This document shows, one piece after another, positions 28,670 through 49,535 of a stretch of 64,000 nucleotides of DNA (position 1 is its first letter; each line of letters begins with the position of its first letter). The notes beneath the pieces were generated by a model. The model saw only the letters and a program-made list of their open reading frames with translations. It ran no database searches and was not told where the DNA came from. Both the position numbers and the translations under genes were made by a program. This DNA comes from a virus. The stretch covers positions 49,267 to 113,266 of the IMG/VR virus record IMGVR_UViG_3300005613_000011. One strand, written 5' to 3'.

Positions 28670-29170
28670 ATGAAAGAGATTTTAAACGAAAGGATCAAGT
28701 CAGAAATTTTATTTTTAATTGCAGAAGATGGTTCTACCATAGGTGCGGTTACTAGAGAAGAGGCGTTGCAGAGGTCGAGATCTGCCGGATTGGATCTCGT
28801 GCTCATTTCGCATAAAAATAATGATAAACCACCGGTTTGTAAGATATTGGATTATGGTAGGATGAAATATGAAGAGAAGAAAAACAACCACAATAAGAAG
28901 AAATCGGTAGTTACGAAGGAGATTAGGCTCAGAAATGCTATGAATATTTCAGATCATGATCTTGATATCAAGCATAGGCAGATGAGAAAATTTCTTGAGA
29001 AGAAAAATAAAGTAAAATATGTATTTGTTGTGAAGGGAAGACAGCGTAGAATGATGGACGAAGCAAAAGAAAAATTAAATGAAAATTTGTCTCAGTTTAA
29101 AGATATTGCTACGTGGGATGAACCAAAAACATCTGATGGTACAATAATTGTATTGTTGTCCCCAAAGTGA
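28670..29170 (+). CDS. infC: Translation initiation factor IF-3
   Basis: LNERIK, GLDLVLIS...PPVCKILDYGRMKYE, KEIRL...ISDHDL..K, GRQ. Confidence 0.93.
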   Translation: MKEILNERIKSEILFLIAEDGSTIGAVTREEALQRSRSAGLDLVLISHKNNDKPPVCKILDYGRMKYEEKKNNHNKKKSVVTKEIRLRNAMNISDHDLDIKHRQMRKFLEKKNKVKYVFVVKGRQRRMMDEAKEKLNENLSQFKDIATWDEPKTSDGTIIVLLSPK

Positions 29171-29228: not shown

Positions 29229-30230
29229 ATGCCAAAGGAAAATGTGGATCAACACGAAGATGCATACAAGATTATGGGAACAAAGGAATTCAATGACGAG
29301 CTAATAGCTCTTCTAAAGATCCGCGCTCCGGTTGTTTTTCTCACCTGTCGTGAAGAAAAACGTATGCTGAATTATTTTAGGCATCTTTCTGAGGCTAGAG
29401 GTTTTAAGACGTATACGTGGGATCTTTGTAACGGTATTAGAAATCTGATCAGCGGCAAGCAGGAAAAAACAACTGGGGACGATTGTACTGAACCAGACAA
29501 TGCCTTGAATGTCATGATAGAGGAAGCAAGTAATGACAAAGATCAAAGAGTGAAGCTTGAAGCAAGCAAAATAAAAGGTAAGATTTATTTATTGCTGGAT
29601 TTTTATAAGTTTCTAGATGAACCAACTACTGAGCGTAGAATAAAAGAGTTTTCCAAAATCGATTCTATGACAACTATTATTTTGACCGGCCCGACTCTTG
29701 ATTTGCCAGTAAGTATTGAGAATCTATTCAGCGTCCTTGATTTTCCTTACCCTAACAATGAGGAAATCAGAGGTTCGATTACTAATCTTTTGAAAGCTGT
29801 TAAAAAGGAAAAGGTTGATCTGCATGATAAGTTGCAGAAACAGTTTAAAAAGGAACAGCATGAGATAATTGGTTCGGTTACAGGTTTGACACTTTCTGAA
29901 GCTCAAAAAGCGTTGTCTAAATCTGTTGTTGTAAAAGCCTCATTTGATATACCATCTATTCTTGCGGAGAAGAAGCAATATATTCGCAGGCGTGGTATTT
30001 TGGAATATTACGAACCCAATCTGACTATGGCAGATGTTGGTGGTTTGCATAGAATGGTCAGGTGGTTGAAGCACAGAAAGCTGGCGTTTAGTCCCGAAGC
30101 CAGAGAGTTCGGGATTCCAGCCTTAAAAGGTTTTCTTGCAGCTGGTGTTCCTGGATGCGTACTAGCTGATACGAAAATCATGATAAAAAAGATTTCTAGC
30201 GAAGGAAAACATAAAGTTATCGAATTTTAG
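29229..30230 (+). CDS. AAA+ ATPase (Ycf46-like), N-terminal part fused to a 24-aa N-intein
   Basis: GLTLSEA, AEKKQYIRRRGILEYY, DVGGL, GIPALKGFLAAGVPG then CVLADTKI...; stops inside Walker A. Confidence 0.88.
   Translation: MPKENVDQHEDAYKIMGTKEFNDELIALLKIRAPVVFLTCREEKRMLNYFRHLSEARGFKTYTWDLCNGIRNLISGKQEKTTGDDCTEPDNALNVMIEEASNDKDQRVKLEASKIKGKIYLLLDFYKFLDEPTTERRIKEFSKIDSMTTIILTGPTLDLPVSIENLFSVLDFPYPNNEEIRGSITNLLKAVKKEKVDLHDKLQKQFKKEQHEIIGSVTGLTLSEAQKALSKSVVVKASFDIPSILAEKKQYIRRRGILEYYEPNLTMADVGGLHRMVRWLKHRKLAFSPEAREFGIPALKGFLAAGVPGCVLADTKIMIKKISSEGKHKVIEF
30156..30227 (+). mobile_element. Split intein N-fragment (IntN, 24 aa)
   Basis: CVLADTKIMIKK is an intein block A directly after GVPG; TAG at 30228-30. 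Confidence 0.85.
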
Positions 30231-30282
30231 AAGTTTAAGAGAGATTTCAGAAAACCACCAAGAAGCAGATGGAGAAACTATT

Positions 30283-30660
30283 ATGCAAATTGGAGAAGAA
30301 ACAGAGATTACAATATCTGATTTTTTTAAATTAACAGCAAAAGAAGGAGGGAAATACAAGGTGAGTACACCAGATGGGTGGTGTGATTTAGGAGAACTGG
30401 TCAAGAAAAAGAACAAGAAGTGTTATTCGATTAGGCTTGATAATGGAATGGCAATGGCTGGTTCTGAAGATCACTTAGTTGAGACAAAAGAAGGATGGAA
30501 AAAACTCAAAGATTTAGAAGTTGAAAACGATATGATTTTAACGTCTGATGGTTTTTGTGAGTTAGTTACTATAGAAAGTATTGGTGTTCATGATACTTAT
30601 GATTTCGAGGTTTTGAGTGAAAAACACAGGTATTTTGCGAATGGAATTGTATCACACAAT
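30283..30660 (+). mobile_element. Split intein C-fragment (IntC, 126 aa, no endonuclease)
   Basis: VSTPDGW, block B SEDH, block F TYDFEV, block G YFANGIVSHN followed by Ser(+1). Confidence 0.9.
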
Positions 30661-31386
30661 TCAGGTAAAAGCTTGATTGCAAAGGCATGTTCTAGCGAAT
30701 ACGGGATTCCTTTGCTCCGTCTTGATTTTGGAGCGTTGTTTAGATCACATGTTGGAGAATCAGAGGCCACAACAAGAGATGCTATTAAACTGGCCGAGGC
30801 ATGTGCTCCGAGCGCCCTTTGGTGTGATGAAGTAGAAAAAGGCTTGTCAGGAACTAAGTCAAGCGGTTCGACGGACGGTGGTACTACCGATAGGGTTGTG
30901 TCTACTTTTTTGACTTGGATGCAAGAAAAGACATCTGAGGTCTTTGTGGTGGCAACTGCAAATGATATAGAAAAGATTCCCGTTCCATTTTACAGGCGTT
31001 TTGATGAAATCTTTTTCGTAGATTTTCCGAATAAGGAAGAAAGGGTAGAAATCGCTCAGGTGTTGTTGAGAAGATACAAAAGGGATTATAAGAAATTTGA
31101 TTGTGAAAGAATTGCTGAACTATCTAATTTGTATACCGGATCAGAAATAGAGAAGGCAATTACTATCGGGCTGTTTGAAGCGTTCGAACATAAAAGAAAA
31201 TTGACTACGGATGATATTGTCAATGCTTTTAATACGTTTACTCCTCAATATAAAATGAGGGAAGAGTATTTTGATAATATGAGAGATCATGCACAATCTT
31301 GTGGTTTTGTATTTGCGAACGAAGAAGTAAAAGAAAGTGCTGAAGGCGCCGGGGGCGATAGTATAGGAATAGATTTAAGCGAATAA
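30283..31386 (+). CDS. AAA+ ATPase C-terminal part preceded by a 126-aa C-intein
   Basis: GGAGA RBS 7 nt before ATG; HN/SGKS junction; Walker B LWCDEVEK, ATAN, RRFDEIFFVD, YTGSEIE. Confidence 0.9.
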   Translation: MQIGEETEITISDFFKLTAKEGGKYKVSTPDGWCDLGELVKKKNKKCYSIRLDNGMAMAGSEDHLVETKEGWKKLKDLEVENDMILTSDGFCELVTIESIGVHDTYDFEVLSEKHRYFANGIVSHNSGKSLIAKACSSEYGIPLLRLDFGALFRSHVGESEATTRDAIKLAEACAPSALWCDEVEKGLSGTKSSGSTDGGTTDRVVSTFLTWMQEKTSEVFVVATANDIEKIPVPFYRRFDEIFFVDFPNKEERVEIAQVLLRRYKRDYKKFDCERIAELSNLYTGSEIEKAITIGLFEAFEHKRKLTTDDIVNAFNTFTPQYKMREEYFDNMRDHAQSCGFVFANEEVKESAEGAGGDSIGIDLSE

Positions 31387-44490: not shown

Positions 44491-46830
44491 ATGGCTAAAA
44501 ATAAAAGTGATATAATAGTTGACAATTTGAAAGGTTTTATTCGCAAAGGCGCTTCTTCTACTCCCGAAGGTTACGTTCCTACTGGTCATTTCAGTCTAGA
44601 TTTCGTAATCAATCACGGAGAGCTACCAGAGAAAATAGATTTATCTGAATTGGAAGGATATGATCCTTCTGAAAATCTGGGTATTCCCCTTGGTAAGCTT
44701 GTAATGTTGTACGGAGAAGAGGGAGGGGGGAAAAGCTCAATTGCATACAGAATATCTGGTTATGCTCAAAAGTTAGGTTATCCTGTTGCATGGTTGGATA
44801 CCGAACATAGTTTTGCAGAGAATCTCGCTAAGATCAATGGGGTTGATGTAGACGAGTTGTATTATTCTACAATGTCTAATCCTAAAGATCCTGACAAGGT
44901 TTATTTTGCAGAAGATGTTTTTGATTCTATTATTGAATTGATTAAGTCTGGTGTCAAAGTAATTATTCTCGATTCGGTTGCGAATCTTGTTCCAAAAGAA
45001 AGGATGGAAGGTAGTGCTGAGAAGATAATTGTTGGGAAACTCGCCAGATTGATGTCTGAAAATCTTGGTAAATTGGTTGCTTATGCCGCAAAGTTTGGAA
45101 CTTTATTGGTTTTTATTAATCAATTAAGATTCAAGATAGGCATAATGTTTGGATGTTTCCATTATAATTCTCGTGTGGTTTTATCTGATGGGACAACGAA
45201 AAAAATTGGTACTATTGTCAATAATAAATTAGATTTGGAAGTTATGTCTTATAATCCTGATACAGGAGATATAGAGCCAAAGAAGATTATAGATTGGCAT
45301 GATAATGGTAGTTTAACAGAAGATGAATGCTTTTTGAATTTTGTTGTAGAAAAACACGGAGGGAATGGAAGGACTAGGTTTTCATGTACTCCAAATCATA
45401 AAATTTTTGTCCCTGAATCTAACGAAAAGTGTTCTAACTATAGCAAAACTATTAGTGCTGGAGATTTGGAGATTGGAGACGAAATATTAGTATCTCAACC
45501 TTACTATTTAAATGACGTGCAAAGACAAATTGTTTATGGGTCTATTCTTGGAGATGGGAATATAAGACCTGGTAGATATAATAGTTCTTGTAGTAATTTG
45601 AGGATTGGTCATGGTCGAGAACAAAAAGATTATTGTCATTGGAAGCAGGAAATTCTTGAGCCTTGGATTGGGTATAGTAAAAACAAGGAAGATAGATACG
45701 ATTTTGAAACTATCCCTATGTTAGAATTGACGAAATTGCAGTATTCCACTAAATATATAACACCAGATTCTAGAGATCCTAGAAATAAAGAAAAAATTAT
45801 TCCAGACGAAATTATTGATAATTTAGGTGAATTAGGGCTTGCTATTTGGTATCTTGATGATGGAACATTTGGTGGTCATTATTCTAAGTGGGGAAATGGT
45901 AAGTCTACTATTTGTTGTATTAAATTTTCCAATAGAGATAAAATGATGAAGACTTTTGATAAATTTGGTTTATGTCCTAAGTTAAAAAAAGTTGGATTTT
46001 TCTTTAATTCTGAAGATACAAGAAAATTACATTCTATTATATGTAAATATGTTCCACCTTGTATGGAATATAAAATTCATCCTAACTTTAGAGGTAAATA
46101 TGATTTTGATATTGACGATCAAGATGACAATATAAAAGAATTGAGAGCAATATCAGCAAAGATCATTGATATTCATGAGAAGGCACCTACAAGAACTAAA
46201 AAGAAATTTGATTTAACGATAGAAGATAATGCATCATATATTGTTGATGGAGCTATAGTCCATAATTCTCCGGAAACTACTCCTGGTGGTATGAGTTTGA
46301 AGCACAATTCATCCTTGATTATCAAGATCACAAAGAAGAAAAGTAGAGATGCCGAAATAGAAATTCCTGGCGAAGATGGAAAAATGAAGCTTATCGGCAG
46401 GAAGTCATACATGAAGGTTGAAAAGAATAGGTTTGCCAAGCCTTGTTTTGAGAATATAGAAGTTCCTATTTATTACATGGAATATTTTCCCAACATAGAA
46501 GAAATAATGTTTGAAACTGGTCGCCAGTTAAAAGTTATTTCTGTCAGGAAGGGAGTATTCAAGTGGACTGATCAAAAAGGCGAAAAACATGAAGCTGAAG
46601 GTAGGTCTGATTTTATAGAGCATATAAAATATAACGAACTTCGGTATTCATTGGCGAAGCATCTCTACGATGTTGCGAATGAAAGCGAAACTATTTTGCC
46701 TCCAGAAATAGTTAAGTGGTTGAAAAATCATGAAGTTAATAATAGTGGTAACAATGATGATGAGAAACCAACCGCCGAGAAGGAGACTGCCGGAAGTGGA
46801 GAGGAAGAAAGTACTCAATCTGGCGATTGA
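44491..46830 (+). CDS. recA: RecA recombinase with intein
   Basis: PTG, GEEGGGKS, LDTEH, ILDSVANL, FINQLR.KIG.MFG / SPETTPGG..LKH, KNR. Confidence 0.93.
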   Translation: MAKNKSDIIVDNLKGFIRKGASSTPEGYVPTGHFSLDFVINHGELPEKIDLSELEGYDPSENLGIPLGKLVMLYGEEGGGKSSIAYRISGYAQKLGYPVAWLDTEHSFAENLAKINGVDVDELYYSTMSNPKDPDKVYFAEDVFDSIIELIKSGVKVIILDSVANLVPKERMEGSAEKIIVGKLARLMSENLGKLVAYAAKFGTLLVFINQLRFKIGIMFGCFHYNSRVVLSDGTTKKIGTIVNNKLDLEVMSYNPDTGDIEPKKIIDWHDNGSLTEDECFLNFVVEKHGGNGRTRFSCTPNHKIFVPESNEKCSNYSKTISAGDLEIGDEILVSQPYYLNDVQRQIVYGSILGDGNIRPGRYNSSCSNLRIGHGREQKDYCHWKQEILEPWIGYSKNKEDRYDFETIPMLELTKLQYSTKYITPDSRDPRNKEKIIPDEIIDNLGELGLAIWYLDDGTFGGHYSKWGNGKSTICCIKFSNRDKMMKTFDKFGLCPKLKKVGFFFNSEDTRKLHSIICKYVPPCMEYKIHPNFRGKYDFDIDDQDDNIKELRAISAKIIDIHEKAPTRTKKKFDLTIEDNASYIVDGAIVHNSPETTPGGMSLKHNSSLIIKITKKKSRDAEIEIPGEDGKMKLIGRKSYMKVEKNRFAKPCFENIEVPIYYMEYFPNIEEIMFETGRQLKVISVRKGVFKWTDQKGEKHEAEGRSDFIEHIKYNELRYSLAKHLYDVANESETILPPEIVKWLKNHEVNNSGNNDDEKPTAEKETAGSGEEESTQSGD
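45154..46266 (+). mobile_element. Cis intein (371 aa) with LAGLIDADG endonuclease in RecA
   Basis: CFHYNSRVVLSDG start, TPNH block B, YGSILGDG and IWYLDDG, ends IVDGAIVHN followed by Ser(+1). Confidence 0.95.
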
Positions 46831-48947: not shown

Positions 48948-49535
48948 ATGGATAGCAAAACCATTGCTACTATTTTATCTAGTGGTAATGTAAAGCCTCT
49001 GGATTCAGAATTCGAAATTGAAGAATTGATTCTATCCGTTAACGGCATTAATGAAAAAATAAGCTGGTATAAAGAACTAAAGAAACAGAGGATGGAAAAA
49101 ATAACGAGCGAAATAGACAAATTGGAAGGTAGAAGAAATCTTTTGAAAGAGATAATTATATCTACTCTAAAAAAGAACGAAAAAACATCACTTAACTTTC
49201 CCGGCATAGGTAAAGTTGTTATGAAGAAGACTGAAGGCATTTGGAAAGTGGAAGATGAAGAATCTCTAATTAAATATCTTGAAAAAGAACTCGATAAAGA
49301 CGAGTTTGAAAAAGTTGTTAAAATTAAAGAATCTATCGTGAAAGCAGTTTTGGATAAGAAACTTGATATGTGGGAACAGTCTGGTTCTCTTCCAAGTTCT
49401 GTAGCTAAAGAAGAAGGGAAAGAGTCTGTTGCCGTGATTATAGACAAGGATTTCTCTGATAACAAGAAAATGCAGGAGATTATCCAGTCTGTAGAAAGTG
49501 TAGATGTTGAAGATATGGACGATCTGGAGATATGA
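48948..49535 (+). CDS. Gam/Gp157-like host-nuclease-inhibitor-type protein
   Basis: N-terminal coiled coil then KTSLNFPGIGKV...W.V.DEE...VK.KE...K..L. Confidence 0.55.
   Translation: MDSKTIATILSSGNVKPLDSEFEIEELILSVNGINEKISWYKELKKQRMEKITSEIDKLEGRRNLLKEIIISTLKKNEKTSLNFPGIGKVVMKKTEGIWKVEDEESLIKYLEKELDKDEFEKVVKIKESIVKAVLDKKLDMWEQSGSLPSSVAKEEGKESVAVIIDKDFSDNKKMQEIIQSVESVDVEDMDDLEI

Follow-up and report, generated by a model that had tools for sequence, protein, structure and literature searches.

A putative short-IntN split intein that interrupts Walker A in an AAA+ ATPase from a huge phage, probably left by a fractured gene that lost its endonuclease

How can a phage encode a P-loop ATPase whose Walker A motif is divided between two genes? 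The question is raised by positions 29229-31386 of a 64,000-nucleotide stretch of viral DNA (hereafter the window; positions 49,267 to 113,266 of IMG/VR record IMGVR_UViG_3300005613_000011), where two neighboring genes on the + strand each carry one part of an intein next to one half of an AAA+ ATPase. We propose that the locus is very probably a fractured gene minus its endonuclease, whose two halves would be joined by a trans-splicing split intein with a short N-terminal and a long C-terminal part (IntN and IntC, respectively). The element itself is almost certainly, to judge from sequence comparisons and a structure model, a naturally and atypically split class-1 intein, broken at the so-called S1 site and seated in the Walker A loop.

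Gene 1 (29229-30230, + strand; 333 residues in the open reading frame (ORF) listing) starts with the N-extein, an AAA+ ATPase N-terminal domain of about 309 residues that extends through the first half of the Walker A motif and ends in GVPG (29229-30155). Immediately 3′ of GVPG lies the codon of the catalytic Cys1 (30156-30158), the first of 24 IntN residues (30156-30227) that comprise about 16 structural residues and a conserved 8-residue tail, and the gene closes with a TAG stop (30228-30230) where the IntN of relatives also terminate. A 52-nucleotide spacer (30231-30282), which includes a GGAGA Shine-Dalgarno sequence (30271-30275) 7 nucleotides before the ATG at 30283, leads to gene 2 (30283-31386, + strand, 367 residues), read in the +1 frame relative to gene 1. 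Its 126-residue IntC (30283-30660) contains helix α1, block B (S-x-x-H), block F and a block G with a His-Asn end; it terminates in SHN at gene 2 residue 126 and is followed directly by the C-extein (30661-31386), which provides Ser+1, the remainder of the Walker A motif (SGKS), Walker B, the AAA core and lid, and the stop codon. Excision of both intein parts gives GVPG-SGKS, i.e., an uninterrupted GVPGSGKS loop. The preliminary description of this locus had placed the gene ends, the 52-nucleotide gap, the frame change, the GGAGA ribosome-binding site, the lengths of both intein parts and the open frame from 30187 exactly to the base.

Do the two exteins belong to one protein? Both are collinear in a single PHROG profile, phrog_8638, where the N-extein covers positions 12-315 of 568 (E 2.2e-35) and the C-extein positions 317-532 (E 3.3e-68), leaving one position between them. 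The Pfam AAA family (PF00004) matches the C-extein from profile position 9 onward (E 4e-20, score 73 versus a cut-off of 21.2), and the AAA core is present with both Walker A and Walker B, the former being whole only once the exteins are joined. The joined product would count 550 residues, within the length range of intein-less homologues (545-571 residues), which carry G-x-P-G-x-GKS at the junction; two of them (P0055 and P0063) have the exact GVPGSGKS sequence, and the nearest (P0008, 556 residues) shares 71% identity with the N-extein and 76% with the C-extein. As far as profiles and homologues can tell, the two exteins are one protein, a huge-phage AAA+ ATPase of the phrog_8638 family. The earlier proposal of a split intein that interrupts an AAA+ Walker A motif and restores GVPG-SGKS is borne out by the comparison with intein-less homologues and phrog_8638, and the reconstruction lies beyond chance because the exteins fit one profile and because IntC matches solved inteins (see below). 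The more specific suggestion of a Ycf46-like ATPase finds an echo only in COG-level source names (SpoVK/Ycf46/Vps4), and the best NCBIfam matches are PAN and CDC48 models, far under their cut-offs.

Sequence comparison of IntC with the PDB gives VidaL (6VGV) as the best match (E 1.6e-8), followed by gp41-1 (E 1.8e-7). An AlphaFold2 model of IntC, computed from a 33-sequence alignment and without the IntN strands, reaches a predicted local distance difference test score of 89.5, and a Foldseek search with this model returns 6vgv at the top (template-modeling score 0.86, root-mean-square deviation 1.9 Å over 126 columns). The top 50 matches are all inteins or bacterial intein-like (BIL) Hint domains, which identifies the fold as the HINT horseshoe. 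IntN together with 5 extein residues found no match in the PDB, the query being too short. The class-1 residues are all present in the window: Cys1, S61, H64, T105, D107, H125, N126 and Ser+1. Across the IntC family alignments H64, D107, H125 and N126 are invariant, S61 and T105 are at least 90% conserved, and the +1 residue, Ser in the window, is always Ser, Cys or Thr; in an IntN alignment of the window and 26 relatives, Cys1, Val2, Thr6, Ile8 and Gly17 are invariant in all 27.

The model also indicates where the fold is broken. It opens with coil (residues 1-10) and continues with helix α1 (residues 11-21), so the break is located before α1, which lies in IntC; furthermore, IntC residue 5 aligns to residue 22 of the fused VidaL chain. 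A break after strand β2 and before helix α1 defines the S1 site of VidaL and PolB16, whereas AceL-TerL and GOS-TerL are assigned to the S2 site after α1, the natural range of short IntN being 15-37 residues (PMC13014065). With a 24-residue IntN and a break before α1, the window intein has the features of an atypical S1 split. The split point had already been likened to that of VidaL, and by structure it is indeed S1 rather than AceL-TerL's S2, though the 24-residue length resembles that of AceL-TerL.

Is the division into two genes natural or an artifact? A whole-protein search retrieved about 36 proteins of 350-410 residues and 47-61% identity, all of which start at the IntC position of gene 2, and in the viral and metagenomic contigs of the relatives the upstream gene ends in a Cys-initiated IntN. 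This IntN is 24 residues long in 26 of the 34 loci measured (22 of 30 after removal of four duplicates), with the stop at the homologous codon. More than 30 independent loci are broken at the same two positions: the halves lie on separate ORFs with a stop and a start of their own, and the break recurs from one independent relative to the next, as is characteristic of naturally split inteins. An assembly or sequencing indel near the A-run at 30185-30190, with a contiguous cis mini-intein as the true gene, would account for the gene 2 frame being open from 30187 and has some appeal in view of contiguous forms in some relatives (L115, L144, P0141 and P0183). We consider it very unlikely, however, because a frame change at this run of A would swap out IntN residues 11-24 and thereby destroy the part that matches the conserved tail and the homologous stop in those 26 of 34 loci; moreover, gene 2 has a Shine-Dalgarno sequence of its own and opens with the Met that the family conserves, and the spacer is a recognizable endonuclease relic (see below), not intein sequence. 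The indel concern, voiced together with the first proposal, is thus answered by metagenome homologues, more than 30 loci of which share both break points, and contiguous homologues, which would speak against a split if they occupied all relatives, exist in some of them, such as the four named above. Four relatives without the endonuclease (L082:1249-1386, L084:20-157, L098:1182-1319 and L109:847-984) lack the usual IntN stop, and their IntN continues into the former spacer to a length of 35-36 residues; in L082 it overlaps the start of IntC by 4 nucleotides.

What, then, separated the halves? Between them lie 0.9-1.2 kb in 33 related loci (2.5 kb in one of these) and at most 142 nucleotides in 14 loci. 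Wherever gap ORFs were read, the gap contains a free-standing ORF of about 300-370 residues; its translation in four viral loci (about 300 residues) matches NUMOD3 (E 1e-9 to 1e-14) and a TnsA-like N-terminal nuclease domain (E 1e-6 to 2e-9), and we read it as a putative free-standing homing endonuclease (NUMOD3 plus TnsA-like PD-(D/E)XK). A free-standing endonuclease between IntN and IntC, the hallmark of a fractured gene, is accordingly found in 33 related loci and is absent from the window.

The window's spacer nevertheless retains a trace of that gene. Its counterpart in L085 is the 3′ end of a 358-residue endonuclease ORF that is still intact, and it likewise aligns with a decayed endonuclease remnant in L084, the closest intein-bearing relative; by these alignments it is the relic of the last ~14 codons (~42 nucleotides) of a lost endonuclease gene. 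The relic matches endonuclease C-termini in the frame that ends 2 nucleotides before the ATG; a reading in the frame of gene 1 was discarded. The relic plausibly survived because it holds the Shine-Dalgarno sequence of the IntC gene, and the L085 endonuclease has no match in the whole 113-kb record. The preliminary description was right that no endonuclease gene lies between the halves in the window, but it missed that the spacer is itself an endonuclease relic and that most relatives keep the gene. The model of Dassa 2009 predicts an endonuclease-loss state (PMC2677866), and the window would represent its derived step III, as the endonuclease is lost and the halves are left adjacent.

A spacer this short raises the possibility of programmed +1 frameshifting at TTT-TAG-A at the end of gene 1, which would produce a contiguous precursor and cis splicing beside or instead of trans-splicing: a +1 slip at 30225-30230 enters the gene 2 frame, which is open for 18 codons up to the ATG at 30283. 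The frame relation is, however, not conserved (among 15 short-gap relatives there are seven +1, seven +2 and one in frame), several relatives have stops in the joining frame, the codons at the IntN end vary between loci, and in 33 loci about 1 kb, the size of an endonuclease gene, lies between the halves. Since such a distance separates them, the family must work in trans, and we give the frameshift only a slim chance. It is similarly improbable that the mobile element broke the ATPase gene for good and that the halves are decaying, non-splicing remnants of a dead locus. No feature of the sequence speaks for this. While the endonuclease is already lost and homing no longer maintains the selfish element, the exteins remain full length and stop-free and share 71% and 76% identity with a homologue that is intact, every catalytic intein residue is present, the IntN tail and the Shine-Dalgarno sequence are conserved, and the arrangement persists across diverged relatives of 45-60% identity.

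VidaL (PDB 6VGV/6VGW; Burton et al. 2020, as cited in PMC13014065) is the closest known counterpart of the window intein, in agreement with the likeness first proposed: it is the best PDB match by both sequence and fold, and its insertion point in the host gene is identical. We found its natural locus on a Lake Vida brine contig (L153, 1421-4100), whose IntC is identical to PDB VidaL over the printed alignment. There, a 16-residue IntN follows GESG, a 373-residue ORF (phrog_22677, without a Pfam match) lies between the halves, and a 123-residue IntC precedes a C-extein that begins with SGKS; the host, encoded downstream of a gp32-like gene, is a RecA/UvsX-like recombinase (Pfam RecA, E 1.6e-10). 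Both inteins have Cys1, Ser+1 and a terminal His-Asn, both are split at S1 with IntC starts at most 2 residues apart in the alignment, and both sit at the same Walker A point, G|SGKS. By the comparison with L153, the window intein and VidaL would therefore share insertion point, split site and a fractured-gene history. They are, however, only ~27-30% identical, and the window IntN has 24 residues versus 16, the 8 extra residues being the tail conserved in its lineage. The hosts also differ, an AAA+ ATPase (phrog_8638) as opposed to a RecA/UvsX-like recombinase, as do the endonucleases, NUMOD3 plus TnsA-like in the relatives of the window in contrast to an L153 gap ORF that matches no Pfam family; finally, the gap ORF is kept in L153, whereas the endonuclease is gone in the window.

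The inteins of the fractured genes in Dassa's 2009 work are reportedly split canonically, a long IntN being paired with a short IntC. Atypically split inteins date to later work (PMC10189870, PMC13014065). The order N-half with IntN, free-standing homing endonuclease and IntC with C-half, on phage contigs, is common to those fractured genes and to the relatives described here, and the endonuclease-less gp41-7 locus is the closest parallel to the window; the hosts in that study are, by contrast, DNA synthesis and repair enzymes, and the endonucleases are GIY-YIG or Vsr-like (PMC2677866). AceL-TerL and GOS-TerL (Thiel 2014; Bachmann and Mootz 2015, both as cited in PMC13014065) likewise combine a short IntN (25 and 37 residues, respectively), phage origin and Cys1 (PMC13014065), but they are split at S2 after α1 and reside in terminase large subunits, whereas here α1 lies in IntC; Cat, an AceL-TerL-derived consensus intein, ranks only 49th in the Foldseek comparison of folds. 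The Walker A loop is a known intein hot spot, and the P-loop inteins of DnaB, MCM, RFC and RecA share this insertion site (Novikova et al. 2016, PMC4760082); those are mostly contiguous and found in cellular replication proteins, unlike the short-IntN split intein of a phage AAA+ protein in the window. P-loop inteins, fractured genes and short-IntN split inteins are thus already known (PMC4760082, PMC2677866, PMC13014065, PMC10189870). We found no paper describing the window's intein lineage in AAA+ hosts, in a search that lay outside the primary VidaL papers, where an earlier listing is possible, and AAA+ proteins are plausibly a previously unreported host for the short-IntN class, as the preliminary description had surmised.

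How widespread is the element? A word-indexed search with IntC alone yielded only 7 proteins; in its place, the IntC alignment was run as a profile in an exhaustive search, which retrieved 58 clusters (50% identity) at E ≤ 1e-30 and 1621 at E ≤ 1e-10. Among the best 60 clusters, the domain lies at the extreme N-terminus, as in an S1 split, in 41 and internally in 14, and a P-loop junction of the form N-[S/C/T]-GK-[S/T] is found in 51. By these counts the lineage is common in metagenomes, and the rarity earlier ascribed to the short-IntN class does not extend to this element, with its 58 profile clusters at E ≤ 1e-30. The same IntC also occurs in other AAA+ proteins, ClpC-like ones included. 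One of these, a metagenomic ClpC-like protein of 516 residues (P0125), begins with the same S1-type IntC and ends in a 32-residue Cys-initiated IntN-like tail after a second P-loop (GVGK), an architecture that suggests the central part of a Clp ATPase made in three pieces, which two different short-IntN split inteins would join.

Within the ATPase family, the nearest extein homologues lack the intein, and the nearest intein-bearing relative is 67% identical in the C-extein and only 50% identical in IntC; such patchy presence and mismatch between extein and IntC identities are as expected of a mobile element. Contiguous forms are of two kinds. L115 (~840-2260) and L144 (~1800-2942) carry a compact cis intein that lacks both the IntN tail and the head of IntC, whereas P0141 and P0183 are in-frame fusions in which the tail, a linker and the IntC Met are all retained, a sign that the halves may have been rejoined once the endonuclease was lost.

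We propose the following history. An ancestral mini-intein would have resided in the Walker A loop of the phrog_8638 ATPase of a huge phage, and a free-standing homing endonuclease gene (NUMOD3 plus TnsA-like PD-(D/E)XK) would have inserted into the intein loop just before α1, splitting the ATPase gene in two: an N-half closed by a short IntN, and a C-half headed by a long IntC. The window phage would later have lost the endonuclease gene by deletion, save for its last ~42 nucleotides, kept together with the ribosome-binding site of the C-half. Both halves would be translated from one operon, the 24-residue IntN would dock on the 126-residue IntC to complete the HINT fold, and Cys1, the block B His, the terminal His-Asn and Ser+1 would then perform class-1 trans-splicing, giving the 550-residue ATPase with a continuous GVPGSGKS. 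The IntN tail and an IntC head of ~7-10 residues are conserved across the lineage. VidaL has no such tail, and L115 and L144 have neither tail nor head. More tentatively, the 8-residue tail and the IntC head could form a lineage-specific docking module, gained with the endonuclease cassette, that strengthens or speeds the association of so short an IntN, a reading that we find possible but doubtful.

Several points weigh against this account of the locus. Gene 2's reading frame stays open as far back as 30187, 32 codons before the ATG, and a single base change could fuse the two genes; there is no ATG, GTG or TTG in that frame between 30187 and 30283. Naturally fused cis forms do exist among the relatives (P0141, P0183, L115 and L144), so fusion by one change has natural precedents, the window itself being split. 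The association and splicing of the halves are deduced from family membership and from the intact catalytic residues, and the proposed order of events, from cis to split, might also have run from split to cis. The source record, finally, is a metagenome assembly fragment of 113 kb with a CheckV completeness of 20%, a piece of a much larger phage genome.

If the ATPase is complete only after splicing, could the split serve as a post-translational switch, as was at first envisaged? We reject this idea as unsupported, for the halves lie 52 nucleotides apart on one strand and a scan of the spacer found no + strand promoter- or terminator-like site within it.

The ATPase appears to be part of a conserved replication/translation block, given its neighbors: a full-length IF-3 gene (28670-29170, + strand; NCBIfam infC, 5.5e-35) lies directly upstream, and downstream follow a gene with a P-loop-like motif, dnaB and a zinc-finger gene. 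ORFs of 165-194 residues, IF-3-like by eye, also lie upstream of the ATPase in several relatives (L002, L003 and L026). The window contains a second, unrelated intein, contiguous and with a LAGLIDADG domain (~45178-46266), in a phage RecA gene (44491-46830, + strand, 779 residues; Pfam RecA 1.8e-40, LAGLIDADG_2 2.2e-19, Intein_splicing 9e-6). Relatives of the ATPase, in turn, show a second intein site at Walker B, right before the conserved LWIDE, at which the window has no intein. The Walker B intein is canonically split in L005:1531-4582 and L049:2018-5707, with an HNH-like free-standing ORF between the halves; it is contiguous in L085:1770-3353 and probably also in L022:4001-6418 and L026:3968-5623.

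For the phage, the arrangement would mean that a conserved replication-module ATPase is active only after splicing, and nothing points to a regulatory use. For protein semisynthesis, few natural split inteins have an IntN short enough for chemical synthesis (VidaL, PolB16, AceL-TerL and GOS-TerL, reviewed in PMC13014065), and the window and its more than 30 diverged relatives offer a ready panel of VidaL-type inteins, with an IntN of mostly 24 residues, Ser, Thr or Cys at +1 and a conserved extra tail. For intein biology, a single protein family presents the element in several states (endonuclease intact, reduced to a relic or absent, and halves re-fused), an unusually complete series in which the final codons of the endonuclease were plausibly kept for the ribosome-binding site that they provide to the downstream half. 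Should the tail and head indeed be a docking module gained with the endonuclease, the related loci would span the full life cycle of a mobile intein in one protein family, from the compact cis form through endonuclease invasion, the fractured gene and decay that keeps only the Shine-Dalgarno sequence to in-frame re-fusion as in P0141 and P0183.

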